DNA of 58,831 nt, the filler included, from Sluysia triapertura (Eukaryota), in assembly GCA_046118255.1 (NCBI GenBank). It is 4 parts of 4 records of this genome, joined end to end, with 100 filler letters (N's around TTAATTAATTAA, not from the genome) between each part and the next. Parts side by side here need not be neighbours in the genome. Positions count along the whole stretch, not along the records: positions 44,375 to 58,831 come from JBJNIA010258626.1; 3 more parts are not named here. One strand, given 5' to 3'. The translations under genes and the position numbers were made by a program. Shown piece by piece: positions 2,723 to 57,413 of the stretch (its first letter is position 1; every line of letters begins with the position of its first letter). The notes under the pieces are model-generated. The model was not told the DNA's origin, ran no database searches, and worked only from the letters and a program-made list of their open reading frames with translations.

Positions 2723-4891
2723 CTAACTTTCTTTCAAATTACCAAGAGATGGTGCCATATAATACTGATTGGACATCATCATCGTACTAGGTCTTCTTTT
2801 AACACAAACAATTCCAATTATGAGAAATAATGCAATAACCAAGGTGATAACAACCATACTGACTACAATAATCAAATTGAGACCGGATAAAGTTCCACCA
2901 GATTCCAATACATTGATAACTAGTATAGTTCTATTACTACGAGGTGGTCGTCCCATATCTCTGACAATCAATAAAACTTGATGTGTTCCACGAGGTAAAG
3001 GAGATATTCGTGTTATCATTATACCAGTTGTTACATTCAAATAAAACAAATCCTCCTTACTTGGTTCCAAGAAATAACGAACTCTACCAGCATCACCTTC
3101 GTCTACATCAATTGCTTCCAGTTTAATTATTTCTTTTCCAGCACCATATGTTTCTGTAACATTTATGTTAGGTGTTAACAGTTGAGGTGTGATCCATTGT
3201 GGATTATTATCATTCTCGTCCGTTACAATCACATAGACTTTAGAACTAGTAGATAGTTCTGGACTCCCATGATCACGAACTGTTACCAGCAAAGTATAAT
3301 TTGGATTCCTTTCTCGATCAAGCTCATCCAAAGCATAAATATCTCCAGTTAGTTGTATTTTGAAAATGTGATTACCTACTCGACCTCCAGTACTGTTAAC
3401 TACTTCTTTTAAATGAAATGTTATGTATTTATTTTCTCTATTAACATCATTATCAGTAGCACGCAATTTTCCTTCGAGCTTCGTATCCAATTTAGAATTT
3501 TCTCGAATATAAAATGTTAAAGAATCCTCATGAAATATTGGTGGATTATCATTTACGTCGTTTATTGTTACATAAACTACAACCTCATTGCTCTTAATAG
3601 GTTCAAGAATGGAATCTGTAACAACAACAGTAAATTTGTTTCGATTAATTTGTTCTCGATCAAAACTTGAAATGCCCGTCCAAATAACGCCAGTTTTTTC
3701 GTCTATTTCATAAAAATGTGTTTTCGATATTTCTTTGATTTGATAACGAAGATGTGCATTGCCATCTTGATCTGTGGCCATAACTTGAATTAATCGTACA
3801 CCTGGTACTGTATTTTCATTCAAATCTATTCTATATACACTTTCAGAGAATTTCGGTTGATATTCATTTATATCTTGAATGTTTATTTCAATATCTACAC
3901 TGCTACGTTGTGGAGGTTGGCCATGATCTTGACAATTAAATGTGGCTGTAATCCTTTTCTGCTGCTCATAATCAAAACGCATCCGAGTTTGTAATTCATA
4001 AACACTTGAATCTCTTTCGTTCAAAGTTAATTCACGTGCACCACCTCGTAATAAACACTCAACTTGCTTGTTTTTATCTAAATCATCATCTGTTACACGA
4101 AAAGCTAATAATTTCTGTGGTGATTCGTTTTCATTTAACCTAATAATTAACTTACCAGCCATTTCTATCACATTATTCTTTTCGAATACCTGTATCGTTG
4201 GGGCATGATCATTAATATCCTTTACACGTATACTTACAGTAGCATAATTGTTCTGATCAACTTTTAATGAATTTACATCGGTAGCAGTCACACGAAAACT
4301 AAACTGTTGAATTGCTTTTGCAGTTAAACGTTTACGTAATTTTAAATCACCGGTTCTTTCATTTAAATCAAAAGTATGCATAATTAATCGATAATTATTT
4401 GTATGAGTACTAGAAATTTCATACTTAGTTATATTGTATGGTTCATCATCTTTATCAACTGCTTTCAATGATAAAATTACTTGATTAAGTGGAAAATCTT
4501 CATTTATTTCTTTTTCATAATGAGACTTTGTAAAAATAGGTAGATTGTCATTTTGATCTATTACTAAAATACGAATAGTTCGATTCGCTGTTTTTGATCC
4601 ACCATCATAAGCAGTCAAAATTCCCATGTACATTTTCTGTTTTTCATAGTCCAAATCTTTGTGCAAGATCAAATACAAACGGTTAATGTCTATTTTTGAT
4701 AACTGAAATGTATTTGTTCTTTCAGTAAATGTATAACTTGTAATTTGGTTCGGTACAGAAATATCGTCATCACGCGCACTTTCGATAGAAATCATAGTAG
4801 ACATTAAACTATTTTCTTTAATTTTCACTATTTCAACTGGAGTATCAAATTTTGGAGAACAGTAAGATATATCAGGATCAGATATATTGTA
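2723..4891 (-). CDS. Protocadherin (delta/lophotrochozoan-type) large ectodomain+TM exon; N-terminus defective as assembled
   Basis: Six cadherin repeats with Ca-binding motifs (LDYE, DQNDNLP, DINDHAP, FDYE, DINEYQP, FDRE, DVNDNPP, LDRE, DENDNNP), then TM LNLIIVVSMVVITLVIALFLIIGIVCV and KRR. The frame stays open upstream of the annotated GTG as far as a TAA at 4892-4894. The ORF end overlaps a likely splice donor (AA|GTTAGT, ~2727), so cytoplasmic exons probably lie further left; none were identified in the window. Confidence 0.9.
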   Translation of the reverse strand, partial: YNISDPDISYCSPKFDTPVEIVKIKENSLMSTMISIESARDDDISVPNQITSYTFTERTNTFQLSKIDINRLYLILHKDLDYEKQKMYMGILTAYDGGSKTANRTIRILVIDQNDNLPIFTKSHYEKEINEDFPLNQVILSLKAVDKDDEPYNITKYEISSTHTNNYRLIMHTFDLNERTGDLKLRKRLTAKAIQQFSFRVTATDVNSLKVDQNNYATVSIRVKDINDHAPTIQVFEKNNVIEMAGKLIIRLNENESPQKLLAFRVTDDDLDKNKQVECLLRGGARELTLNERDSSVYELQTRMRFDYEQQKRITATFNCQDHGQPPQRSSVDIEINIQDINEYQPKFSESVYRIDLNENTVPGVRLIQVMATDQDGNAHLRYQIKEISKTHFYEIDEKTGVIWTGISSFDREQINRNKFTVVVTDSILEPIKSNEVVVYVTINDVNDNPPIFHEDSLTFYIRENSKLDTKLEGKLRATDNDVNRENKYITFHLKEVVNSTGGRVGNHIFKIQLTGDIYALDELDRERNPNYTLLVTVRDHGSPELSTSSKVYVIVTDENDNNPQWITPQLLTPNINVTETYGAGKEIIKLEAIDVDEGDAGRVRYFLEPSKEDLFYLNVTTGIMITRISPLPRGTHQVLLIVRDMGRPPRSNRTILVINVLESGGTLSGLNLIIVVSMVVITLVIALFLIIGIVCVKRRPSTMMMSNQYYMAPSLGNLKES

Positions 4892-6291: not shown

Positions 6292-6426
6292 TGGACTGAC
6301 CGGGATTCGAACAGTTGGATGTTCTGACCATTAAGCTATCACCCCCAACTAACAATTTTAATTTTTTTATTATAGTCAATGATAATATCATTATTCTAAA
6401 TGGAACTTTAGGCCTGTACCTCAACA
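6292..6426 (-). repeat. tRNA-derived dispersed repeat, copy 1 (degenerate)
   Basis: Remnant A box (TAGCTTAATGG) and B box (TTCGAATCC) on minus. Shares the upstream flank TGTTG...AGGCCTAAAG..CCATTT..TTGACTATAATAA with copies 2 and 3. Confidence 0.65.
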
Positions 6427-6899
6427 ATATTATAGAATACAGATTTTTTATTTTACGGATCAGTAATAAAGTTTTGGAAATGTTTATTTTTTAAATGCTT
6501 TGATTTTGTTATTAACAAACTTGGTGTTGACCTAAAATGATTTAATCTAGTATAAGTAGTAATGATTTATAAACTTCATTTAAGTTAAATTTCATAAAAA
6601 TTCCATTAAAAATAACATCAACATTTATTTCATGTGGGCTTGATACAAACTTATACATACATAAACAAGAGCTTAGATAATGCATAAATTCTGTAAAGGT
6701 GTACAAAATTTTTATATTTCTATTTTATAAAAAATTATTAAAATTTATATTATTTAAAAAATTATTAGTTTAATTATATTAAAATTAAAATTATTATTAT
6801 AAATTAAAAAACATTATAAAAGAAACATCTAGAAACAATTTTGTTTAAATACATCTAATTTTATGTATATATAGACATGCACAAATAGAAAGCTGCCAT

Positions 6900-9869: not shown

Positions 9870-10429
9870 AAAATATTAATGATCCTTCACTTCTGATAAT
9901 GACCAACGACAAATTAAAGTAAAATTCTTTATACTCAAGTTTCAAGAAAAATGTAAAGTTAACAACTATATTAATTCAAATTTTATATTTATTTCATATA
10001 TATGTTTATTTATGTATTTTGATATTGAATTACTGGATTCACTTAATAATCACGATTCTAGTTTTGTCACATTTTCTACTTTTAGTTCAGAAGTTGATCA
10101 TATTAATGTATACTTTGTTTTTGAAATCGATTGATATAGTCATAGTGTACACGTCCAGACTATTAGTTTCGATGAAGAATTCTAATCTAATTAGGTTTTA
10201 ATTGTAACAGTATCAAGTACAATGAACTTAATATTAGTATTATGAATAAAGACGCAATGAGAATTAATTATAAGATGAAAAGATTTTGTTATCACTAAAG
10301 GTTAAGGTTGAAGTTCTATCCTGAAGTATTATCAAATGTACTGAAGCTTAATACAATAAATTTAAACACACTATAACACCTTATCTAAAAGATTATTATT
10401 ATTATTTATAAATTTTTAATTCTTATACA

Positions 10430-10960
10430 AAAGACCTCTATATAACGAACACCAACATGTTCAATAAAAAAATAACGAATAATCTAATTAACATGTATTC
10501 ATAAAACAAAAATTTTCTACTAATGTTTCATCCATTAAGTCTTCTTTTCTTGAAATAGCATTTGAACTGATATTATTAATGCATTTGAAACATTCAAGCC
10601 ATCCATTTGAAGCTTTAAAAATATCCTTTCCAATTTTACTAGCAATTCGTAAGTATTTTTAAACTATCCATTTTTAAAGTGAAGTTTTTGCATCTTTGAA
10701 CTCATTTTTATTTACAATATCCATTCTATTTTGTTTATGGCTCTAATAATCATGTTAAACTTCGCTGCCAAATCTCTTCTTCAGTATTTGGTCAATAGTT
10801 CAACTTTTCCAACTTTTTTCTAATTATTCCGCACTTTCATTTAAGGGTTGAAAAATATTAAAATTTCAATAAAATTTAATATTAAAACAAAATGTTTTTT
10901 AACTTTATTTATTTATTCTTGAATCGATAATTCCACTTTTTCAAAAGTGGCGGTGTGACA
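10430..10960 (-). mobile_element. pogo/Tigger (CENP-B HTH) transposon remnant
   Basis: Minus-strand translation FKASNGWLECFK at ~10585-10620 matches the CENP-B-type HTH motif FKASxGWLxxFK. Tigger-like terminal sequence ACCTCTATATAACGAAC at ~10434. Confidence 0.65.
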
Positions 10961-24431: not shown

Positions 24432-24869
24432 TAAAATTATACTTGATATACTATCTATTGAAATTATTAAGGTTTAAAACGATCAAGATAATAATAGTGA
24501 ATCTTAATGATTCATAAGTTTTCAAGACGCAATAATACATATATAATTTTGGTACAAAATGTCTTAATACATAATTTTACAACAATTTGACAACTATTTG
24601 ATTTTTAATTTTAAAAAAATGTATAATTTATATCATTTTTACAACGAAATTTTAAATCTACATTTAAATATACAGTTTGTCAATTTCAAATTTACATTTA
24701 TTTTTTATATTTACATTTATTATTTACATTTATATTTATATTTAAATACATACATTTACATTTCTATGGCTTAGTTAAGTATTTGTAGATGTCGTATCGT
24801 AACTCGTTTAGTTATTCTCCTAATATCAGGTTCATACTAGTTTTATACAAAGAACTCACTCGACATATA

Positions 24870-25550
24870 ATCTGTGTTACTAAATTTAGTTCGTGAGTCT
24901 TGAACTTGTTTCTGCTATTCGAGATAGATGTAAGTACTTAATCAGTAAAAGGTTACAAAATTAATTTATATGAACTTTATGTGTTTAACTCTGTAAGTGT
25001 CCTTTCTTAAAAAGAACTTACTCAGCAAAAGGTTATCCTCTGGAGACAAGCTCGGCTAATTAGAGACGGTTTACGTCGTTGGTCGATGACGGTCTTATTA
25101 GACTTATGACAAGATTAACTATGAAAGATGACAAAAATACTGACAGGATTTAAATTCAAATAGCGTCAAATTACTGATAGAATTACAAAAAAATTAATTT
25201 TTAATTTAGTTCGTAAATTAAGATGGCCTTTTTATTGTCTGTTAATCGATTTATTTGATTTTATATATTGAGACAGCCTTTTTACGGTCTGTCAAATATT
25301 TAATTATTTTAGAAGTTAAATCAGCCTTATTACGGTCTGATTATAATTTATGGTTGATTTTAGTTAAGAGGATAAGACACTAATATATATTATATACAGA
25401 TTATACACAAACATAAAAGTATTAATAAGCATAGGCAAAGACAAGATATAAAACAATGATTATAGTAACGATAATATTTTAAGTCTTATGGTTTCCCTTA
25501 GACTATTTGATTTTAGCCAAAAGGTAGAGATAGCCTTTTTACAGTCTGTC
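24870..25550 (+). mobile_element. Fragment of a relative of the 48-58 kb LTR element: polyprotein C-terminus plus stem-loop array
   Basis: RRFTSLVDDGLIRLMTRLTMKDDK/ILTGFKFK aligns with KTYTCKISEGRIRLIFTLYTNSGDVLLGFKIVK (50490-50610, minus), and is followed by four AGCCTTTTTACGGTCT-type hairpins. Confidence 0.6.
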
Positions 25551-26409
25551 AATAATTAAAAAATATTTTAAGTCGAAGTTTAATAATCCTATTAATTACA
25601 ATTAGGATTTTATTAAGACTTATAAAAAAATTACTTTTGCATGGAAAATAAGTTTTTTGATTCCTATCTGACTTCTCGAACTAGAAAATTCACTTCGGAA
25701 ATTTAGAGATTTTTTTATTGTCTTACGCTGAAAATGATTAATATTTATATTAGATTTACCTGCCTCCATGTTGGATTTTAATATTTATTTATTTTTTACT
25801 TCAATAAAACAATTAAAAATTAAAAATTTTTTCTAATAGATTTTTATTGAAAATTTTACTAAATATAATAATAAAAAAATTAATAATTTTAAATTAATAA
25901 TTTTAAAATTAATAATTTTAATTAATAATTTTATTAATAAAATTAATAATATTAATAACTAATTTATAAAACAGAAATAAAATAGATAAAATACTAAAAC
26001 TATTTTCAATCATTTTTGTTAAATATCAATTTCAATCACATGATGAGTTTTTTCCAACATTTTCTCTTCCCATGGAAGATTTGTCCCAAATCTTAGAAAT
26101 CAACATCATCGAAGGACATTCCCGGTGGTGATGGGGAATCGGTGAACGCTCCATGTGATGACCGCGGTCTAGGTTGTGGAGGTGGTGATAACAGTGACGG
26201 AGAACAACACTAGTACTTAATTAATGTATCACTTTAATTTATATAGACTTTAGTCCTCAATACTTGTATATTAAATTACAATAAACAAATAAATCGAAGT
26301 TTTATTTCAGTTCAGTAAAATTTTTATTAAATAACACAAATGGATAGCAATTTAAATAGTTCATTAATAATTATTTAATAATTCAAACTGAATTTTTATT
26401 TTAAATTAA

Positions 26410-31297: not shown

Positions 31298-34290
31298 CAG
31301 AGGCGGACGAAGGCCTAAGCAACCTAGGCACGTACCTGAGACTCGTAATTTTTGGGCCCGAAAATTAGGTTTTTAATTTTTTACTTTTTATAATTAATTT
31401 TTATTTTTATTTAACAGAAAAACGTGATATTCATAATTATTGATGAAACATATCCAAATAATGCCGAATCGTTGATTGATAAAGTCGATAAGTGTGGACG
31501 AGCATTCCCCTGCTTATGCATCCACACCCGAGAATGTCGATGTGTAAATACGATCAAGCCTCTACTATTCACGTGTTTAAAAAATCAAACGTAGCTAATT
31601 AAAATCAGTGTCTCTTGAACGCATTGCATCTTATGTGAGTTGTGATTGAAAATTGTGCAATTAAGACTTAAGTACCTAGACTTGATTGCAAACAGATTGT
31701 TTTGGATTGTTAATATTTTCTGGAATTCCTAAAATAAAAATTTAAGTTTTTATAAAAGTATTACATTATTTAATTAAATAATATATAATATAAAATACCA
31801 CAAATTGTGATTGTGATATTGAGTAAAAATAAATTTAATTAAAGATCATTTTCTTCTTTCTTTTTAGTACGTGGTCTTTAAAATGAGTTCCTATAAACAT
31901 TTAAGTGGAACTGAAAAAAGAAAACGAAAAGCAGATCGAGACAAAGTGGCAAAACAAATGAAAAGATCGTTGGACAAATTTTTAACCGTAGATGTTGAAC
32001 AATTACAACATTCGTCATCATTTTCACAGATTTCACCTGCTCAAACTCCAGACACATCATTTGTGTCCGAAAGTATTCTGCAAAAAGACCAGCAGGAAAA
32101 TCCAAGCAATTCCGTTTGTGAAGATGAAACAAAAGGAGAAAATATAAATTTAAAATCATCTCAAAATAATGATGTAAACAATATTGCATTATGGCCAGAA
32201 TACTGAACAGATGCCAAAATCGATGCAACGAAGGGTCAAAAAAATCACAAGAAAATTAACTATTGCCTCCTTCTTCAGAACAATTAATAGCGGGAAAACA
32301 TTAAAAGAGATTAGTTGGCTTATACTGAAACCAGAAATGATTGGAAAAATATACTTAAAAAATTGTAAGAGCATGAAAACTCCACTTTAACTCCATTTTA
32401 ATTTTTATAACAAAGTCTAAAATTACCGGACACATTGACACTGAACTAGAAAAACAAATTATAAATAAAAAAATATTAGAGGGAAGTACTTAAACGTGTT
32501 TCATGGCAAGAATGAAGTGCTTTTAGCGAAAATTATGGTAATTATATAGGTGCTTTCGAATATTTATCCGAGTTCGATCCATTTTTGAGGAAACACTTGA
32601 AAACATATGCAAACTACGGCACCGGTACTATAAACCATTTGAAAGTCTACAATATGTGATGAATTTATTTCTATTATATCGAAAGTTTTACAACTCACAA
32701 TAGTGAACGAAATAAAGGAAGCCAAATTTTACTCTCTAATTATTGATTCAACACCTAGTATATGTCACGCAGATCAGCTGACCGTCATTATTCGCTGTGT
32801 TCTTCCAAGTGGTATAAAAGAAAGATTTTTGGGATTTCTATTTATTTTTTCTAATACTGGTGAAAACTTGGAGAAAGTTATTTTAGAATTTTTAAATAAT
32901 ACAGATTTATAGACATCACTATCTGTCGGGACAGAATTATGATAATGAGTTTAATATGTCAGATAAATATAAGGGACTCCAATCCAGAATAAAACAACAT
33001 ATTTTTTCTGCCCATTTTATACTATGCACATTTTAAATTTAAATTCAATTGAAAATATTCTGCGTCGAAAGTTGCATGGAAATGACCATTCTTTTCAATT
33101 TCGTTCAGGAATTATACGCATTTTTCAAGTTCTAAACATTGGTGGAATGCATAACAAAAATTTTGTAAGAGAAAATATTTGAGTATTAAACCTATTTGTG
33201 ACACCAGGTGGTCTGCTCGTTCCGATGCTGTGAAATCTTTAAAGGAAAATTATGAAGAAATTAAACACTTTTACGTCATTTTTCCTCAAACGAAGATGAA
33301 AAACCATTAACAATGTCCGAAGCTGCTGATTTACATAAAAGATTGATACATTAGAGTATGCACTGTTGCTTACTTTATGGGAAAATATTTTAGAAAGAAC
33401 AGATGCTTCAGCAAGACTTTCAACAAAAAGACGAATCCTTAAATACAGCAGTTTTTATATATGATTCATTGATAGATTTCATAAAAAATGTTAGAGATGA
33501 TTTTGACAATTTAGAAAAAGAAGCAGCAAAAGTTAAAGATATTGCATATACTAATGATAAAAAACGGCTGAAAATTCGAAAACTATTTCGTGATGAAATT
33601 CCAGAACATGAAATAAGATTCAGTGGCAAAAACCATTTTAAAGTTAATATTTTTTTGTTAATTATCAACATTAAAAAAAGATCTGAGGGATATAAAATTA
33701 TTAACAATAAATTAAAAACAATTTTTCAAGATGTTAGTGACTCTTCAAAATAGGAATTAAAATGTTATGAACAAGATTTAAACCTAGAAGAACTGAAAAA
33801 TGAAGTAAATAAAATATAATGAAAATAATATTATTGCAACATTCCCTAATTTAAATATAATTCTGAGTACTTATTTAACTCTTCCAACAAGCAATACAAG
33901 CGGTGAAAGATCATTCTCAGTAATAGTCAGAATAAAAAATTTTTAAGATCCACATTAGGCCAACAAATATTAAATAGTTTATCATTACTTGATATAGAAA
34001 AGGTTATTAAATAACTCTATTAATTATGACAAACTAGTTGACGAGTTTGCAGAATTAAAAGTGAGAAAAAAGGCAATCTGGCTATATTTGTTTAAATATT
34101 ATTGTTTGTTTTAATAAATTATGTTTTAATTTTTGTACATGTACATTAATTTTTTCCTTTTTTTCTTGGAATCCGATAATTAAATAGAACTACATACTAC
34201 ATGCTTAAAGACCAAACTACCAAACGCAAAGTATGTGAAAAATAAGCCCGAAATTACAATGTTGCTTAAGTCCACAACTATAGTAACCTC
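31298..34290 (+). mobile_element. Decayed hAT DNA transposon (ZMYM1/DUF4371-like transposase)
   Basis: Left end CAGAGGCGGA.. with subterminal CCTAAGCAAC, mirrored by GTTGCTTAAG at 34261. Right TIR eroded. Confidence 0.8.
31883..34080 (+). pseudogene. hAT transposase pseudogene
   Basis: Motifs in order: SGTEKRKRK; AKFYSLIIDSTP...DQLTVIIRCV...ERFLGF; GQNYDN..NMS.KYKGLQSRIK; CDTRWSAR; FPNL...LTLPTSNTSGERSFS (dimerisation domain). Many stops and frameshifts. Confidence 0.9.
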
Positions 34291-36418: not shown

Positions 36419-37208
36419 TGGACTGACCCGGGATCAAACCCGGGACCTCTTGCTGCGCAGTTCGATGATTAAAAAACATGTATTAATATAATAGTTTTGG
36501 TCTCTTCTTTCTCTTTTTTAGAGAAGGAAGGTAATCTTCTTTCTTCTATTCAGGGACCTTGTAAGACATGGTCGCGGTATGCGTTATTCGAGGACTCCAC
36601 AGCTAGTCATACGCACTGTCGTACCAGGGTCTTGATTTCGGTCTTGTGGAAGTGCCTTGAGAAGCTTGTCATTCTCGGGATCCCATGAACCCAAGGCTCC
36701 AACGACGAATGTATCTAGAGACACCTTGCACTTCAGTTGTTCCTGTAGTTTGCTCTGTAGATCAGAATACTTCGAAAGATTGGTGGTTCGGGCTATTTCG
36801 AAATTTTTCTTCAGGTCCATGGGAGTTTTGACAGTTGCGATGAGGAAGTACCGCGGGCCTGTATGTCGTCGAGTGTCACTGATAATTGGTTTAGGCGAAT
36901 CCTTGATGACCAAGAATCCCTTTTGGGTCATTTTGTCCGCTAGGTAATTAAGGATTTTGTTGTGCCGGAGTGTTCTGGCTGTGCTTGTGTGAAGACATCG
37001 ACGGAGCACGTTTAGAAGGGATTCAGATTCGAGGCCACACCATCGACATGATACTGGCAGATGAAGACGTCAGTTCTGTGGACTGAAATTATGACTAATG
37101 ATGTTGTTCCGGGCCTTGATCATATACATCCATGCACTGAGCTATAATAAAAATTATTATTATTATAGTTAACCATACCAAATGGCACCTTAGGCCTATT
37201 TCGCAACA
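36419..37208 (-). repeat. tRNA-derived dispersed repeat, copy 2, split by a retrotransposon (parts 36419-36467 and 37135-37208)
   Basis: 3' half CATCGAACTGCGCAGCAAGAGGTCCCGGGTTTGATCCCGGGTCAGTCCA and 5' part TAGCTCAGTG plus the shared flank lie on either side of the insertion. Confidence 0.8.
36468..37134 (-). mobile_element. 5'-truncated non-LTR retrotransposon with restriction-like endonuclease (NeSL/R2/Utopia-like)
   Basis: WMYMIKARNN; degenerate CCHC CRWCGLESESLLNVLRRC; RHNKIL; ARTTNLSKYSDL; FVVGALGSWDPEND; terminal SSNNAYRDH; ~80-nt 3' UTR. Confidence 0.85.
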
Positions 37209-38249
37209 AGATTTAAATTCTCTGTCACAATGTTAACATAATTTTCACACAAATAAACTAAATTATGATAATGAAATTTCAAGATAAAAAACTCGTCCAT
37301 TATTCAATTAATATTGCCTATTTTTCTTATATGTACATATTCTAACAATTTAAAATAATTTTAAAATAATTAACGTTAAACAGCTTCGCAAACAGTATTT
37401 CTCCATATTGCAAATAGCACAAAAATAAGTCGTCATAAAGCACATCCGAAACAGGTATAATAAGCATAGTATATACCTATTGTTATATTTTTTTATTGGT
37501 TTTTATGTTGGTGTACTAGGTCTACATACGATTGTATATTTGTTTAATATTTTGAGTGTTAAATGTGCTGCTTTGTTTATTTATATTTGGTGGGATTTTA
37601 AATGATAGGTTTGAACCATCACGTTTTATTTTTAATTAATTTTTCTCTTTCAAATTTCTAAATCTTTAAATGTAACTTTTTTGTAGAATTAAATTAGATA
37701 ATAAAATTTTGAAGTGTCTCACCAAACATTTATACAAATTGTGCTATTCCTCATTTATCAATCATCATATATAAATAATCAACATGTGTTATAATCCTCA
37801 AGAAACACAAGTTATTGATTCATTCTTCTTTGTTATTTACAAGCATCAATATAGTGTTACATTAAATATCAAATCGCGATACAGAAAACCATCAAAATAT
37901 CAAAATATCTAGTCATGAAATGTATTTTAAAAGTTTTCATAATACTAATAAACCATATAAGTAACAACACTTTATAATCAATGTGACAAATAATAATTAT
38001 AACCAAATAATAATTGTAATAATTTCATTTATTAATGCAGTTTTAATGGTACAATAAAAAATTGTGATTCAATATTTCTTCAAATGTGTCATAGTGAATA
38101 TTTTCTTAAATACTGCAATAAAAAATACTAAATATTTACATCTTCGTAAGGATGAAGATGTAACTCTCAAAATATTAAACATATATGTAATCGCATATAG
38201 ACTTAGCACACCAACATAAAAACCATTAAAAATATAGTTTATATTACAA

Positions 38250-38805: not shown

Positions 38806-38930
38806 TGGACTGGCTGGGGTTCGAACCCAGTCAGTTCGATGCTCTACCACTGAGCTATCAGCCCGTCTAGCGATTTTATTTTATTATAGTCAATTTTACC
38901 AAATGGCACTTTAGGCCTTTTATCCCAACA
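38806..38930 (-). repeat. tRNA-derived dispersed repeat, copy 3
   Basis: GGGCTGATAGCTCAGTGGTAGAGCATCGAACTG-(deletion)-ACTGGGTTCGAACCCCAGCCAGTCCA with intact A and B boxes, plus the shared upstream flank. Confidence 0.8.
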
Positions 38931-48119: not shown

Positions 48120-48541
48120 TATTTGCGTTTTAGAAAAGGGTTGGGTTTGTTATGGCGATGTTTGCGACACAGGCCATTCGCCTTAGAAAAACGTTTTAAT
48201 TCCTGCCTCCGCCTATGTCGTCTTTGGGACTTTGTGAGGCCGAGAGGTTTGAAATAGGCGGATTAGCAAGATGTGGATCATACGTGGAAGTTGAAGGGAA
48301 GGGAGACAATTCCTATCAGAAGATTGATGAAGTAAGTGTTATAGTTAAAGAAGATGAAATATGAACGATGTCAAAGATATACTGATGTTTATATCAATTT
48401 TTATAGTAAAATTTATAGTAAGGGCAAGATGGATAGTCTGTAGGAGCATTGTCATAAAGAAAGAAGATGGGTGCAAGGCATCGCACGAGTTTGGTACTTA
48501 CGTAAAGGTCTAAGGCATATTGAGCAGCGATAAAATCCCAT
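48120..48541 (-). pseudogene. Accessory ORF remnant: N-terminal RING finger, S/P-rich linker, Arg-rich tail
   Basis: MGFYRCSICLRPLRKYQTRAMPCTH...(frameshift)PSCPY; later KSQRRHRRRQELKRF. The ATG is preceded by a strong acceptor TTTCATTTTGTTTCAG. Confidence 0.55.
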
Positions 48542-48879
48542 AACTGAAACAAAATGAAAGAGTTGTAACAATGAATTTCATAATTAGAATTAAATGGAAT
48601 TAAATGAAATGAGTTAAATTTTAATTGAAATTTAACAAAATCCTAAAATTATTAATGAATTTATCAGATAATGCTACGACAAGATATTGTATATTTTCGA
48701 ATAATTAAGACGAGGTGAATAGTGATTTCACTGCCACCGGCCGGTTATTTAAACGAAAAATATACTGTCCTTAAACTACTAGAATATTTTTACTCTTTCG
48801 TGTTCAAAAGAGATGGAATCTAATAGCTTCAACCGTAAGGTTGGCTGCAAGCAGAGTGAAAATTATAAAGATCATTTCA

Positions 48880-49800
48880 TGGATAGAGTAATATAAGGAA
48901 TAAAAATTAGGATTTTGTATAATGGTATTGTTAACACTAAATTTAAAATTAATTGGATCGATTGATTTATTATTCCTATTAATGATATTTGACTTATACC
49001 TGACTTTAAATTTGTCCGCCTTAATTAATGATTTAGTGATTATAGGTACCGAAAAGTCGTATAATCCAAAGTTTGACGGAGGCTTTAATATAACATAAAT
49101 TTCACTACTACGTAAAATCTAAATTTTAATTATTGGTAATAGTGAGGTTGATACGTAACGTAAAAGAATAGTCGAGTTTGTAGAACGATTGACATCAATC
49201 TCATAATAAGTATAATAATGGATTTTTTAGTTTTACCAAGTCATTGTTCGTTTTAGTAGCCAATATTTTTAATTTATCATGAAATTTGAACGTATGCGAG
49301 TTTTGTATTATTTATTGCTATAGTTATAGTGACTGTGACATTAAATAATTGATTTTCAGATAGGTTACCACAAAAGGTGATCCAACGATTATAAATCTTA
49401 TTTATGGAAGTTGTTAATTTACACCACCTATCTAAACAACATTCTAACTTGTTCGCTAACTTAATCTCAGTGTATATTTCTTTGCGTCCAGCGGTAATGT
49501 TGACTTGCGATTATTCATTGTAGAGAAATGTGTCAAAGTACACACGGCAGAAATGCATACTACATAAGCTAATAATGTGGATCGCAGGTGGGTCATTTGA
49601 ATTCCATAATGGCAAAGCGGTGTAGTTGTGCACTGGTGATGAAAATTATTGTAATTCTAATGGTGTTTGTGAGCTAAAACGATAAAGAATGGAGTACTGA
49701 TCATTATCTATATTAGAATGAAGATTGGTAGAGTTATCCTTATTTCGAGTAATTGTATATGCGACCACTAAAATAATGATAATAATATTACTACTTATGT
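48880..49800 (-). pseudogene. Accessory ORF remnant, predicted secreted or membrane protein
   Basis: Long frame with sparse stops, hydrophobic N-terminus IIIIILVVAYTI, several Cys, and sequons NST, NYT, NIT, NLS, NVT, NRS. Confidence 0.4.
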
Positions 49801-50070
49801 TTACTCATTTGAATGAAAAGTGTAACTGCTTTGTATATTTTCCGTTTAAATGAATTTGTACTATTATATGTTTATCTTCACTTGGTAAAAAGTCTGAACA
49901 AATTGTAGAGGAATGTATTTTTTAAAGGAAAATTTTACTGGCAAAATTTTTAGTTCCAATTTTGTTTACGATGTCCATGCAATACAAGTAATTTTTATTG
50001 TTAAGTTTAACGTTTTCAGCATAAGAGGAGAAGACTAAAATCTTACTCAAAATATTAATTAGTTTTTGGA

Positions 50071-50407
50071 GCTAGATCTTAAAAAGACTAGCGAAATATA
50101 ATTTTAAACTTAAAAATTCGTCGAAACACTTTAATCGTATTTATATTATAAATGAACAACTTTTGTTAATTAAGTTTATAACTATTGTAATTATTAAGTT
50201 TAGTTAAAAGTTGATTTTTAATAAGGTAACTTTGTTTTTCAACACTAGACCTTAAAAAAGCTTGTGAAATTTCTAAATTCATATATTGTTTTTATACTAG
50301 ACCTTAAAAAGGCTAGTGAGATTTCTAAAATAATACTGTTTTTATACTAAACCCTAAAAAGGCTAGTGATATTTATTTTTCTGAACTGTACCTTAAAAAG
50401 GCTAGTG
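50071..50407 (-). repeat. Array of five stem-loops (~40-52 bp period for four of them)
   Basis: CACTAG-CC-TTTTTAA-GG-T-CTAGT(A/G) and variants at 50071, 50243, 50295, 50345 and 50384. Confidence 0.85.
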
Positions 50408-50659
50408 AAACGTAATAAAAATATAATTTAATTTAAAGTGACGACATAAAATTTTAATCTCTAAGGAGCTAACGCACACAATTTAAGTTTAGCTTAGGTT
50501 AAATTTGACTATTTTAAATCCTAATAAAACGTCTCCAGAATTGGTATAAAGCGTGAATATTAGGCGAATCCGACCTTCAGATATTTTGCAAGTATAAGTT
50601 TTTAAGTCTATTTTTTGATAAAATTCGTGCATTAGGTTGTGGAAATTTAACTACCTTAA

Positions 50660-51040
50660 CCATATTCTACTTGTTCCTCTGCCCATACGCATTTAGTAGG
50701 TTTAGTTTTTAATCCATCAATTTGTAATCAACTTGTAATTTTTTATGTCGGCAACATGTGCGTCAAAATTCTTTGAAAATATTACAAACGATTACATTCT
50801 TACAACCCGAAAGGACGAAATTCATACAGCACCGAAATGTTGCAGGTGCTCCTGTTAGACCGAAGGGAATTTTTTTGCATTCGTATAATTGATCTCAACA
50901 AGGGAATGCAGTTTTGTGATTATCTTTTTTAGCTATTTCTATCTGCCATTAACAACTCTGTAAATCTAATGTAGTAAAGAATGCTGCGTTTCCTAATTTA
51001 TCTAACATCTCGTCAATTCTTGGTAAGGGAAAACATCTCT
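50660..51040 (-). pseudogene. Ty3/gypsy reverse transcriptase fragment
   Basis: DVFPLPRIDEMLDKLGNAAFFTTLDLQSC*WQI...KTAF...IPFGLTGAPATFR, YxDD deleted, then GLKTKPTKCVWAEEQVEY. Confidence 0.92.
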
Positions 51041-51299
51041 TCTACTAATTTCGCTTAATTCTCTTACTTAATTATCTTACCTTCACAAATGTTACAAATA
51101 GAATCCGCTATTCCTATATCTAATTTTTTCTGATTACCTTCGGATGTGATAAACATTATTGAACCTGTTAACAAACTATTGGTTCTTCCTGGATTAATAT
51201 ATTCTGCCCTACTTAATAACCAAAACGGTTCATCTACAATAATATCGTTATCATCTATTGTACGATTCGTATAGCTACCCATTAATTTCGCCTTATCAA

Positions 51300-51530
51300 A
51301 ATCTAAGGTAATTCCTTTAAGATGTGATAACACGTCCATACCTAAAATCATATCTTCGAGACAGTATCTCATAACACTTAATCTAACTTCAAATTTATTT
51401 TTTCCTAATTCGCAAAAGGCTTTCATTACTTCTACTATTTTTATCGCATCTCCTCGCTTGTTAAGAAAGATTTGTTCCTGTGTCAGTTAATGCTGCAATA
51501 ACTCGACCATTAATTCTAATTTTAACCATC
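51300..51530 (-). pseudogene. Retroviral-type aspartic protease
   Basis: VKIRINGRVIAALTDTGTNLS (DTG at 51476-51484) and DMILGMDVL. Confidence 0.9.
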
Positions 51531-51739
51531 GCACCATAATAATTTACATTCTTTGTTGGTGAAGTTGGAAGAATTGGATATAAAAAATTTTTTATTGTTT
51601 TTAGGTTTTTCTTTATTTTCTTTATATCTTCTGTGTTTCCTTTCTTAATTTCGTTATTTCGATTCGAATCTATGTTTTGTAATAATATGTTTTCATTAAT
51701 GTTTGTACGTTCCTTTTTTAATGCGTTTATTTGAGAATT

Positions 51740-53300
51740 TGCGTGGTGATGAAGTAAATATTTAGATAAGAAATGAAAACATCCTATAATATAAATTCCT
51801 ATTAAACCAGAAAAGCAAAAGAAACTATCTCACATTTGTTTTAGTGTATTTTAAGCAGCTTTCTTAAAATGATCAGGCCCTAATAATAGTTCAAAATTAA
51901 CTTGACCGTCTTTTCTACAATAGCTTTATCTGTTAAAACCTTAGATTGCTTAATTGGGAATAAAATTGCATGTCATTAGTATAAATACCAGAATTAGGGA
52001 TCTTTTTAGTTGCTAAGAATTTTAATTTACCTCTTAATTCGGTTAAACCTATTACTTCTGGCATCTTAACCTGACTTCTATGCGGTAATGAAATCCATAA
52101 ATTATCATCTATCCTGTACTCGGGTGCCATGACATTTGAGCACTACGTGGTTTTTATTTTAATTTTATCATTTAGTAATAATACTCGTGTTACCGGTTCT
52201 AAATAGGTTTGTAATTTTCCATAAATCCGATTCTTGTATTTAAACTTCGACTTTCTTATATTTTTCTTATATTTATAAGTATATAATACTTCACCCATTA
52301 GTCTACAAAATACGCCTTCTTCTAAAGGTAAAAGTGGTGCCACTAGATTAGGATTAGTAATCGCGATTGCTAACATAGTTCATAAAATTTCCTTATTTAG
52401 TTGACAATCTCTTGTTATCATTGCATAAACTTTTTCTAGCGACATTAGTCCTAAAAAATAGTAAAAGTCAATCTTATTGTTAAATTATGTGTTTAATTTT
52501 AAATTCTTAGGGTCACCTCCCTTTTTTGCTTGTGGAATTATATGTTCAGACAAATAAATACTTTGATAGTTAGTCTCAGTTACTTCTTTACCACATCTAA
52601 TGATTGAATTTTTTGACATAAATATTAAACCGTCTTCTTCCTTATTTGCCATAAGAATTGTAGGAGTTTCTACCTCTTTCAATTTTTTTCTTTCTAAATT
52701 TTCCTTATGTATTTGTTTCTTACTTAATTCCTCAATGAGTAATTCATGATCATTTTGAAATACGAATTCTGATACAAGATTAAACTTAATTTGTTTTAGA
52801 AATATCAAAGGACACTGAAACCTATTTAATTCGCAAAGTAATATTGATTCTATTTTACAAAAACGTACCTGATATATTCTACAGACCCCTTTCACATGTT
52901 CCATCTAATAATACATTTCCTGCTGTCCTTACATTATAAATAATCTTTGCATTATCTTTTATTTCCAACTTATCCCCTTTATTTAAATTTATATAAACGG
53001 TTTCGAATGTATCCATAAAGTTATTGGGTGATATTTGAAAAGGTTTTAGAACGTTTGAATATCAATAATCGATGAGTGACTTTGATGTCCACAATACCAT
53101 ATTACGACTGATCATTTAAACGAATATTAAATTACACATTCAGTATCTTACTATCCTTAAATATTACTCTATTGGGTCATGACTCCGGCCAATCCTCTCT
53201 CTGGAGCAATGAAAATTTTTTTATCTATTTAAGGTCTACTACAATTCCATTTGTCTTATTTATGCCGAACATAGCAAGCAAAATAATTACGAATAACATA
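51740..53300 (-). pseudogene. Envelope glycoprotein of chuvirus-G / herpesvirus gB-like (class III) type
   Basis: Signal-like MLFVIILLAMFGINKTNG; FSLL; WYCGHQSHSSII; AGNVLLDGTCE; CGKEVTETNYQSIYL; GVFCRLMGEVLYTYK; YLEPVTRVL; CSNVMAPEYRIDDNLW; SGIYT; TM SGLIGIYII; FLSKYLLH. Order and spacing match recalled chuvirus-like glycoprotein motifs. Confidence 0.8.
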
Positions 53301-54049
53301 TTATTAGTAGAATTACCTAATCTAGGCAGTATATATTATTCAATAGATTATTATTTTCTAATATATTTGTGGACCAATTGAGAGTTTCATTAGAGTTTAA
53401 TTTGTCGCTTTCTTTAATTATATTTTTCTAATCACCTTTGTTTTCAATCCATAACTTAAGTTTTTTGTCTATAAAATTTAATATTTGATATATCTTCTCC
53501 TTAGTAAGAAGTTTCTCTTTATCACATTGGAACAATGTGTAAGTAATGATGATTTTGAGCTTTTCTCTATTTAATCCAGTATTAATTTGTTTACCTATTA
53601 TCAACTTATATTGCCCCGTGTCTGTATAATCACTTATATCCTTATCTCTATATTTTTCTTCTAATTATTGCGTTAATTGAGTAATTGCACTTCTTGTCAA
53701 ATACTTCTTGATAATACTTGTGAAAATTATCAAACTTATCCGACAATAGTGCATAAATTAAACTTGTTGTATCTATTTCAATTTTATCGCTAAATCTATA
53801 GTATTCCTATTAACATAATTAGGAGTTATAAATTGATCACTGCATTCCTCTTTTCTGGGTCTGCCTGGTCTTCTCTTGAGAGTATTTGTTTCCTTATTTA
53901 ATGTCTCTATATGTGGATTGTCATTTAAATCTATTATCTGGTTGTTCATTATCTGTATCAGTATTAATATCCACATTAATTTGTATCCATTTGTATTCAT
54001 TTGTATTCACATTAACTTTATTAGGAGTAGAACAATTAAATGGTATATC

Positions 54050-54280
54050 ATAAACAATAGTAGCTTTTAATATATCATCATGAATTCCAAGAGGTTAACC
54101 ATAATCATTTAAAAAATAATCGGGCACCAGATTTCTATCATTAAAATATAAGTTGACAACCGTAGTATTAGAGTCATTCATTTTAATTAAATCTATAATT
54201 TCTTTGAATCTCGTAGTGATAGGCAATTCCATTACTACATTTATTAAATCATTAATTAATATTTTAATATTCAATAAGGT
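54050..54280 (-). pseudogene. Ubiquitin-like domain within the polyprotein
   Basis: LNIKILIND..VVMELPITTRFKEIIDLIK...NLYFNDRNLVPDYFLNDYG*PLGIHDDILKATIV parallels ubiquitin [29 protein letters not shown]. Confidence 0.5.
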
Positions 54281-55124
54281 TGTTGGTGTTTCATTTCGTT
54301 CCATGTGTGCAATTTTCTTTAATATTTTTCTTGCTTTAACTTTATGATAATTTTCTTCTCTACTTAACGCAACTAAAATAGACTTAATTTTATGGCCATC
54401 TGGAAGACTTAAGTCGGACTTATATAAATTTTCAAAATTAATTCGATGTCTTCCTTATTTAAACATGAAAGAAATGCATTAACTTCGTTATTGCAGATAA
54501 TTCTAACGTGTTTGCTTTATTCTCCTCATTGACAGAGGTTCATTTTCGCTTTCTAGAATAACTTCATTGCTTGTATTCGAATTACTAATTTCACTTTTAT
54601 TTGAACCTTCATATTCACTTATACTTGATTGTTGAATTTGTTTCGAGATATTCGAGATATCCAATGTTAAACTCGAATTGTCACTATTGTCATCTATGAT
54701 TTTTATTATTTACTTCGCTTGCGTTTTTCTCCTTCTCTAACTCCTTATCTTTCAACTCTTGTTTTCTTTTTAATATTTAAGATAATGCTCGTACATATAA
54801 TTTATAAATGCATCCTCTTCTTTTTGTCTATTATATCTATCTTCATTTTCATCATCATCGTCACCGTCTAATTTTATTCTAGAAAACTCTTTAATAAATC
54901 CATCTTTATGTCTCCTATAGTTTCTTCTTCTGAATCATAATCTTCGTGCGTTTCTTCATCATAATTATTGTAACTATTTCGCATTTTATTATATTATAAT
55001 TTATTTGTTCCTTACTCTTATTCTTAACGTCATTAAACCTTACTTTTCTATCTGAGTTTGTCTCTCTCGAATAATCTTGCATTTTAGTAATATTTTGATT
55101 AAAAGTTTCAGCTCTTAATTTCTT

Positions 55125-56068
55125 ACAATTTCTAGCGTAATGACCTTGCTTATCACAGTTATTACATATTACATTCTCTTCTGTTTGTTTGAGTCTTATG
55201 GTTATTAGCAGGACTTCTTTTTCTATTCACCAGCCGAACTTGGCCAACGCGATGCAGGTCTTTGTTCGTAACCTTGAGGTTTTGTTATTACTTTTAAAAC
55301 CGAAATTATTATTAATTCTAAAAGCCTGAGAGATATTTTCTCAAAAATTATTTCTAACTCCTCATCGTACCTTAGTGCATTATTTGTTCTGAAATTATTT
55401 CCTCTACTAAAATTATTACTTCTGTAATTAGAATTATTTCCTCCAAAATTAGGATTAGTAGTATTATAACTATTTATTCTACAGTCCAAATTATTATCAT
55501 ATCCAGCATTAAAATTAGAGTTCTTACGTTCTTAAAATTTCTTTTTTTATAATTATCTTGAGATTTCTCGATGCCCCTTAACATATGCTCTTAATTCTGA
55601 GCGTAGACCACTTTTTAACTTATCAATTAAAAGATTCTCCTTTTATCATCAACTTTAGCTCTAAAGACTTTAATGCGCATGCAAGTTCATAAACTGTTTC
55701 CTTACATTTCCTTACATAAACTGTTTTCTTCGTACATTGAGCATCTTAATGTAATATTTACCTATATCGCCGAGATCTATTTCTTCAGTGAAGGCATTTA
55801 CAAACTCTTGCCAATTTTGCTTATAAATTTTATCAATTTCCTTATAAATCTGGATTGCAACTCCAGTTAAGTAGTTTTGTATACGCTTAATCTTTTCAAT
55901 TTCTATCCAGCCATTTGCCTCTGTAATACTATCATACTCAAAAAGAAAATCACAGAGTTCTTCCTCTGCGCCATAAAATTTTCTTAAATCGGGGAATGCC
56001 ATTGTAAGCCTAATATCCCTAGCAAATTGAGACATATAGTCTCTAAATTCTTCTATTGGTAAAGACAT
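55125..56068 (-). pseudogene. Gag (capsid plus CCHC zinc knuckle)
   Basis: KFYGAEEELCDFLFEYD...ANGW...YLTGVA...WQEFVNAF capsid signature; KSGLRSELR; CNNCDKQGHYARNC at 55125-55166. Confidence 0.9.
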
Positions 56069-57395
56069 CTTATTTGTTTGTTTAGAGTGATTTCTTCTAG
56101 GCTTTTTCTTATTCTTAGTAAATTCAATTAAACTTCGTGTATCAATTCTGAAGACTTAAAAAGTTAATATTCAAATATCAATATTTAATAACTTGAATAA
56201 TAGTTCAATAGGTACAAATGTAAATCGGAATCAAATATTTTAAACTTAAATCAAGAAAACTTAATAAAATTCAATTAAACTTGACAATTACAAATCCAAA
56301 TCTTATAAATCTCAAGAAAATATCAAAAACCTTATCAATTACTTATCAAACAATGTAAAGACAATTCAAAATAATACCATAACTCAATAAAATCGTAATT
56401 ATAAACTTAACTTTAGTCAAAATTAGGGGTAAAACTTACTTAAAACTTATGTAAAATTCAAATAATCAAATGAAACTTAACAAATTCTATGAAAACTTAA
56501 TGAAATTATAAAATAACTTAAAATAACTGTTAAACTTATACAACTTAATGTCATACTTAAGTAAAACGTACAAAACTTATGAAATTAAGGCATATACTTA
56601 AGAAACGTATAAATTCTTACTTAAACTTATACAAAAACTTATAAAAATCAGCTCTAAATCATCACATACTTAAGGGGTAATCATAATAATAAAAACTTAA
56701 TAAAAACTTAAATACTTAATAAATACTTAATAAAAACTTAACTTAATTATCAAAATATTCGATAAAACGTAGACTTATAATTTAAAAATTCAAAATATAA
56801 CACCTAAAATTTTAAAATTCACAATTAAAAAGCTTAAATTTAATGGTAACTTGACTTAATCGCAAAATATACAATATAACTTACACTTATAGCTTAAAAA
56901 TGCAAAATTACACACTTAAACTTAATTTTAACTTATTATATATCTAAATAATTCAAACTTAGAACCTTAAATTCTTATCAAAACAACTTTAAAAACAACT
57001 TATACGAGATTAAACTTAAAACTCAAATAATAACGTATTATAACTTATATCGTCGAAAATCAAACTTAATTTTACTCTTAAAAGTGTTCAAACTTAAAAA
57101 TTATCAAGAGTTCAATGCTTAATTTTAATTTCAACTCGTTTAAAAACCTTATAATCAATGAAACACAAACTTATAAACTTAAATTCTATGAATTACTAGT
57201 CAGAATTACTTAAAAGCAACGGATAAATACAAAAACTTGTCAAAATTCAAATTTTAATATCGAATTATAAAGTAAATCATCAAAACTTAAAAATTCAATG
57301 TTCTGTAAATACAATCAAACTTAAAAAATTCAATGCAAAAATGATAAAAACGTCGTTAAAACTCAAAAATTTAACGTATGTCTTAACTTATGTAA

Positions 57396-57413
57396 GTCCC
57401 AATTCGGGCGCCA
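57396..57413 (-). promoter_or_regulatory. Primer-binding site, tRNA-Lys(UUU)-like
   Basis: TGGCGCCCGAATTGGGAC matches the canonical tRNA-Lys3 PBS TGGCGCCCGAACAGGGAC at 16/18 and lies 5 nt inside the LTR terminal CA. Confidence 0.85.

Follow-up and report, generated by a model that had tools for sequence, protein, structure and literature searches.

A probable structure-selected RNA hairpin array in two homologous clusters, one inside a decayed Burro-like Gypsy element of Sluysia triapertura

What might a set of nine small, similar hairpins, some of them in the remains of a retroelement, be doing? The hairpins lie in a 58,831-nucleotide stretch of Sluysia triapertura sequence (the window), animal DNA of ~25% GC, where they form two clusters. 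Cluster A holds five copies on the minus strand (50071-50406) and cluster B holds four on the plus strand (25222-25550). A sequence-only reading had counted nine copies, and we found all nine in these clusters, one of them degenerate (Table 1). They share a 22-nt unit whose stem has five outer and two inner pairs, separated on the 3' side by a bulged U, and whose loop is seven letters long and rich in U. The loop starts with U in 9/9 copies and the bulged U is invariant, so the conserved loop and bulge described earlier stand, as does the inner-pair switch from C-G to T-A (U-A in RNA), which is found in the hairpin at 50071-50092. The spacing of about 50 nt previously given for most copies holds for four of the seven intervals (48-52 nt) and fails for the remaining three, which measure 39, 173 and 209 nt. 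Linkers between the hairpins are A/U-rich and unfolded.

Table 1. Features of the two hairpin clusters and their surroundings, in window positions.
Feature	Positions	Strand	Remarks
Cluster A hairpin 1	50385-50406	-	two stem mismatches
Cluster A hairpin 2	50346-50367	-	
Cluster A hairpin 3	50296-50317	-	fold z -3.4
Cluster A hairpin 4	50244-50265	-	
Cluster A last hairpin, lone	50071-50092	-	173 nt on; C-G to U-A change; fold z -4.3
Cluster B hairpin 1, degenerate	25222-25243	+	
Cluster B hairpin 2	25272-25293	+	fold z -3.2
Cluster B hairpin 3	25320-25341	+	fold z -2.8
Cluster B last hairpin, lone	25529-25550	+	209 nt on
Stretch after cluster B, homologous to the post-A stretch in two competing registers	25551-25770	+	
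Coding-like remnant before cluster B, GC-richer (33%)	24790-25152	+	no pol match
Decayed ORF downstream of cluster A	49280-50071	-	4 stops in 264 codons
Other decayed coding remains: hydrophobic, signal-like stretch and part of a RING finger	48394-49118	-	RING finger E 0.0025
Reverse transcriptase (RT) remnant, cut at both ends	50545-51041	-	E 9.5e-12; lower end placed by eye
Broken protease with the spacer region that follows it	51073-51541	-	
Env remnant between gag and protease, a broken fusion glycoprotein of Monjiviricetes type	51710-53314	-	PF24664, E 2e-16
SUMO/ubiquitin-like remnant	53951-54250	-	PF11976, weak, E 0.034; ubiquitin domain at the same place in relative L025
Broken gag: capsid-like part and CCHC knuckle	54915-56155	-	E 1e-4 to relatives
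Primer-binding-site-like sequence	57396-57413	-	

The stems carry the main evidence that the RNA shape has been maintained. The earlier statement that the outer stems differ in sequence yet mostly pair was borne out: of 63 stem cells in the nine copies, 52 are Watson-Crick, 6 are G-U and 5 are unpaired, so that 58/63 pair. Two-sided changes occur in four of the seven pairs, and G-U intermediates are seen at both switches of the A-U/G-C type. When the register was slid as a control, merely 14-40% of cells paired. The covariation score was 0.587 against 0.310 in shuffles and none of 500 shuffles reached the observed value, in a control that ignores kinship among the copies. The copies being related by duplication, hand parsimony leaves only about five independent two-sided changes. 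A covariance model scores 32-44 bits on the nine copies, matches that hold by construction since the model was built from them; the next-best match in the window scores 16 bits. A descriptor derived from the copies, and therefore post hoc, hits five sites in the window and one across all 300 shuffled windows. The two clusters are homologous (p=0.002) and have one linker in common. Both show the same architecture, in which a tight group of hairpins is followed by a gap of 173 or 209 nt and a lone hairpin. Because covariation with G-U intermediates is joined by homology of the two clusters, we consider the RNA motif to be real and probably structure-selected, judging from the sequence. In this respect the proposal, an RNA element of an LTR retroelement that is present in several copies and selected for its structure, is supported; the position assigned to it is a separate matter, taken up below.

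Thermodynamic signals are uneven. Folding is clearly better than in shuffles in only four of the nine copies (z -2.8 to -4.3), and neither cluster region as a whole folds better than its shuffles (z -0.70 and 0.08) or gives any signal of a larger fold or pseudoknot. The strand signal is weak: there are six G-U cells on the sense strand versus two A-C cells, and the better-folding strand is sense for five of the nine copies and antisense for three, with one tie. These results bear on a neutral origin, in which a palindromic unit spread by tandem duplication and kept its symmetry through template switching during copying. Cluster A does contain a tandem repeat (a 50-nt unit, 2.6 copies, 87% identical) that includes three of the hairpins, and tandem repeats are marked on the Burro maps in the accessible part of PMC6431247; the lack of whole-region folding would also fit. 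Template switching should, however, erase the bulge, yet the bulge is kept in all nine copies. A comparison of spacers between clusters A and B found the loop letters kept while the long spacers were without significant similarity (p=0.89). We therefore regard a neutral by-product as decidedly improbable.

Domain similarities place cluster A in a decayed Burro-like Gypsy element on the minus strand. The copy spans ~9 kb, is interrupted by stops and deletions, and has a primer-binding-site-like sequence, putatively of the tRNA-Lys type. Its gag has one CCHC knuckle (PF00098, E 1e-4). No BCL2-like domain was matched by Pfam in the window; the relative P0001 gave E 0.2. A search for a pair of LTRs within the window, which ends 1.4 kb beyond the primer site, found none. 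A representative search with the env piece gave 99 relatives. Of 11 long ones scanned, 4 combine env, protease, RT, RNase H and integrase in one chain, and loci L024 and L026 do likewise; a single in-frame polyprotein is present in P0047, P0051, P0064, P0071, L024 and L026. One sequencing run, possibly the window's own source, covers all 30 bins between 48.5 and 58.8 kb, and the contigs that do so are many and diverged, which indicates a repeated element family, depth not being equal to copy number. Trees, both built without L139 and with a mis-cut row for the distant env of L002, fail to place the window element firmly. Viral contigs contained no relative of env or pol and no match to the paired strict hairpin pattern; 109 stretches in them fit a loose paired pattern and were treated as chance. 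Troyka (PMC12440569) and the Anakin/Jingchuvirales EVEs (PMC10084718) were rejected as matches, each having a different layout as far as the accessible text describes it.

Several observations on the relatives stand apart from the hairpins. The complete env-pol polyprotein P0051, of the window element's lineage, is deposited as a Flavobacteriaceae protein, a likely case of bin contamination. Several relatives, among them P0001, P0047, P0053 and L024 ORF1, have two to four aspartic protease domains in tandem and, beyond the integrase, a tail anchored in the membrane and containing repeated cysteine units. Loci L139 (G004:C146) and L002 are more distant Gypsy elements whose polyprotein includes the same fusion env, and they are present in a bacterial genome bin as contaminants; L139 has a second ORF of 453 codons.

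The sequence-only reading had put the arrays just after the pol stop of two diverged elements, and this placement was not confirmed at either cluster. At cluster A the RT similarity ends near 50545, so that RT is cut off at ~50.5 kb. RNase H is present in 42/45 RT relatives, and L024 and P0051 continue for ~1,100 residues beyond RT that are missing in the window; a profile of 50 pol relatives found neither RNase H nor integrase anywhere in it. Given an RT without these ~1,100 residues, either a deletion joins RT to the array or the array is part of a neighbouring piece. Before cluster B (24.7-25.2 kb) no pol was found by the 50-relative profile, tblastn or Pfam, and an RT thumb or RNase H upstream of the cluster was rejected since profile and Pfam were negative. 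By these comparisons, the apparent upstream stop follows a deletion inside RT at cluster A and coding-like DNA at cluster B. The arrays precede a predicted downstream ORF and do not lie in a plain 3' UTR.

We compared what lies on either side of the two clusters. Upstream sequences are not significantly similar (p=0.15 and 0.42), and the downstream stretches are homologous (p=0.0005). Both downstream stretches contain a common ATG context, 95 nt (A) and 93 nt (B) after the last hairpin core. In cluster B a competing alignment (p=0.0015) sets the homologous part 125 nt farther downstream. After cluster A a low-stop frame has 4 stops in 233 codons versus 17 expected, and this frame already opens at the last hairpin. 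The ATG at 49978 may thus be the start of the ORF or an internal codon, the latter because the frame is open from the last hairpin and because a second alignment competes in cluster B. The decayed ORF was the best of 459 window segments when compared with the membrane-protein unit that ends relatives' polyproteins, a weak likeness (E 0.12, probability 2.5%) that scored above 100/100 shuffles. Searched among longer proteins, it had no homologue, and the peptide comparison for the stretch downstream of cluster B gave p=0.24.

These downstream features raise the alternative that the hairpins, standing in an unstructured leader rich in U and A, serve to recruit ribosomes, by internal entry or reinitiation and perhaps at a non-AUG codon, to translate the downstream ORF from unspliced RNA. 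The distance from last hairpin to ATG context is similar in clusters A and B and amounts to 88 or 101 nt in the relative L024. TTGCATG occurs six times in the window, and two of these sites are the ATG contexts after the clusters. The three intergenic stretches, those of A, B and L024, contain few ATGs (8 versus 17.9 expected, P=0.008), and the cluster A frame that opens at the last hairpin would suit such entry. The rival alignment in cluster B, and with it the prospect of an internal ATG, weakens the argument from spacing. L024 also has an out-of-frame ATG 13 nt upstream of its ORF2, neither cluster region shows a larger fold or pseudoknot, and no Rfam IRES matches. On balance we judge a ribosome-recruiting element unlikely. 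In a broader version, Burro-like enveloped retroelements would express their genome as a two-gene RNA, and the array would be an undescribed signal at the junction that gives access to the second gene with no need of an ordinary capped start. Ribosomes would enter internally at the last hairpin or shortly beyond it, or the trans-splicing machinery of the host would be called in, as in an operon; this seems to us rather improbable.

The ATG contexts (49976-49984, minus strand, and 25637-25643, plus strand) equal the last 7-9 letters of a published Macrostomum spliced leader, and partial leaders inside flatworm LTR elements have been reported (PMC12582326). As a spliced-leader relic the contexts were rejected: the full leader had no match, and the two sites ranked 50 and 84 of 3295 segments for the single, non-host published leader that was compared.

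Relatives with DNA comprised 23 loci from genome bins, at least three from metagenomes and one further contig. Four env-bearing loci (L024, L026, L002 and L139) reach beyond the polyprotein stop. L024 is intact and is the closer of two by env similarity to the window piece (177 bits, against 81 for L026). Its polyprotein stops at 10282, hairpins follow at 10448 and 10500, 52 nt apart, and an exonuclease ORF of the RNase_T family begins at 10617. The L024 hairpins share the core AGCC-N7-GG-N-CT with the window copies. Strict-core matches number three in 379,128 nt, two of them being L024's, and the chance of one in the 334-nt gap is 0.00135, a post hoc figure. For the L024 pair the predicted fold uses a different register and has a GNRA loop, with pair probabilities of 0.0 for the window register, and the covariance model run on L024 missed both hairpins. 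Adding them to the alignment lowers pairing to 78% (eight pairs). Because the predicted register differs and the model misses them, the L024 hairpins may be unrelated to the window motif. In L026, L002 and L139, all more distant than L024, the motif was not found after the polyprotein stop. A model scan of 13 loci gave nothing convincing (best E 0.078), and a scan of five contaminated genome bins gave one unconvincing match (E 0.53), located where a bacterial operon ends.

The L024 comparison is one argument for a site read in DNA, in which repeated sites about five helical turns apart would bind a factor and form part of an internal promoter or enhancer of the accessory gene. The AG-CC and GG-N-CT core is common to L024 while the predicted RNA fold is not, L024 repeats the 48-52 nt interval seen in 4/7 cases, and the strand bias is weak. 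Matched-pair changes in the outer stem with G-U intermediates would be needless for a double-stranded site, and we find a DNA element improbable. That the L024 hairpins follow the polyprotein stop also fits an element stabilizing the polyprotein message, which would protect the extended 3' tail against nonsense-mediated decay, or else a Roquin-type decay site of the host. The U-rich loop ending in UA loosely recalls Roquin ADE loops. ADE loops are six letters long with a purine first, according to the accessible portion of PMC11609897, and our hairpins have seven letters with U first. We rate a stability or decay element highly improbable.

Splice signals near the L024 hairpins were also examined. 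On the sense strand of the L024 contig, three of the five GTAAGT donors sit just before hairpins (P=0.00015), and AG stands directly before the ORF2 ATG. The gap at 10283-10616 is thus laid out as a compact candidate splice-control unit, with three GTAAGT, two GNRA hairpins and AG at the start codon. No GTAAG or GTGAG donor precedes the hairpins of clusters A and B, and there is no aligned acceptor.

Our preferred reading, held tentatively and at a little under even chances, is that the array is a multi-copy protein-binding RNA element between the polyprotein and the accessory genes that acts on splicing or on export of unspliced RNA. The element would work as RNA on the sense strand, and its hairpins would let one protein dock at several places along the unspliced transcript. 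Matched stem changes with G-U intermediates, together with a fixed bulge and loop, fit a protein that reads RNA shape; it would contact the loop and bulge, and candidates are a host factor, Gag or an accessory protein coded by the element. Four or five copies in unfolded linkers would fit multivalent binding. Docking would set the balance between genome-length RNA, to be exported and then packaged, and the spliced message for the accessory gene, the controlled step presumably being splicing or export. The array would normally occupy the junction of polyprotein and accessory gene (in the window a deletion joins RT to the array), and cluster B would belong to a related element. Control of unspliced versus spliced RNA is indicated because the site precedes a second ORF and because extra ORFs of LTR elements are typically expressed via spliced messages, as the accessible part of PMC5408684 has it. 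Retroviral export elements likewise act on intron-retaining RNA (PMC5341730, in the text accessible to us).

Packaging could also be the direct role of the array, as a packaging or dimerisation signal 3' of pol through which the element's own Gag would select genome-length RNA, with no part in ORF2 expression. Small multi-copy hairpins with a fixed loop and bulge would suit this, as would a Gag with a CCHC knuckle and the survival of the array in a copy that lost much coding sequence. Known packaging signals lie mostly near the 5' end, and the model finds no copy of the hairpin in the element's 1.3-kb 5' leader. The homologous spacing to the downstream ORF would also be left unexplained, and a pure packaging signal is, in our estimate, rather improbable, on a par with the junction signal.

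We compared the element and its hairpins with known systems. Like Burro/GYPSM1 of planarians, as described in the accessible part of PMC6431247, the window element has env between gag and protease, a CCHC gag and accessory ORFs, and Burro has mapped tandem repeats. Burro-like elements also have SUMO-like (PF11976) and BCL2-like domains before env, and to the first of these the window gives a weak match. On the strength of the Burro match, the host is probably a flatworm. Burro has two or three CCHC knuckles where the window gag has one. Elements of the Burro-like class have long LTRs and measure 25-30 kb, whereas the window copy, at its ~9 kb and with no LTR pair found, is broken and without RNase H and integrase. 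The Burro/GYPSM1 description contains no hairpin array in its accessible part, and the word stem-loop has no occurrence in the paper (PMC6431247). Juno and Vesta of bdelloids, with a DEDDy exonuclease as ORF3, resemble L024 and its RNase_T-family ORF in having an accessory ORF after pol, and differ in having no env inside the polyprotein, according to the accessible text of PMC5408684; hairpin, stem-loop and UTR element do not occur in that paper.

Among RNA elements, the M-PMV CTE and HIV-1 RRE are alike in being structured cis elements in the 3' part of intron-retaining RNA with more than one protein site, putative in the case of our hairpins. The CTE is one extended stem-loop of ~150 nt that binds two NXF1/NXT1, where the window has separate 22-nt hairpins (PMC5341730, accessible part). 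Identity with CTE or RRE by sequence or fold was rejected for want of an Rfam match. Roquin ADEs share a small hairpin with a U-rich loop, CC/GG near the loop, several copies and, in Ox40, a bulge (PMC11609897 and PMC5603727, as far as accessible); identity was rejected on the loop rule already given (six letters, purine at position 1, against seven letters and U first in 9/9 copies). The sequence-only reading had likened the motif to the histone stem-loop while denying a match. A U-rich loop on a CC/GG-containing stem is indeed common to both; the histone 3' stem-loop has a four-letter loop on an unbroken six-pair stem and stands as a single copy at the mRNA end. The seven-letter loop and bulge of our hairpins, with no Rfam match, uphold the denial. 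No hairpin matched Rfam at the gathering score, E-value scans stayed at chance level, and nothing credible appeared at either cluster.

The motif is thus absent from Rfam and sits in a known class of element. Our search of openly accessible article text turned up no description of it; Burro sequence files in primary papers may already show the array. The case bears on the means by which giant enveloped retroelements express their many accessory genes and on how introns are retained in the packaged RNA. RNA signals of this sort are familiar among retroelements, which makes the array a new example and not a new principle; were internal entry or trans-splicing the true explanation, the gain would go beyond that. 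Being only 22 nt long, present in several copies and naturally varied by compensatory changes, the motif could serve as a compact bait for the protein involved and suits reporter tests.

The rest of the window holds several unrelated features. An intact, single-exon cadherin ORF (protocadherin-like, 722 codons, six repeats, E 1e-66) lies at 2723-4891 on the minus strand. Another minus-strand ORF, of 397 codons with six 36-nt repeats and no Pfam match, lies at 22507-23700. Broken pieces of a leucine-rich-repeat gene occur at 21292-21908 (plus strand), and a broken DNA-transposase-like gene with a weak DUF4371 match occupies 31868-33753 (plus strand). Inverted repeats of 79 nt, 86% complementary and 593 nt apart, mark a likely miniature inverted-repeat element at 37486-38236. 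Finally, a tRNA-like Rfam match at 38806-38864 (minus strand) falls inside a dispersed repeat, with related pieces at 6292-6428 and 37154-37209.
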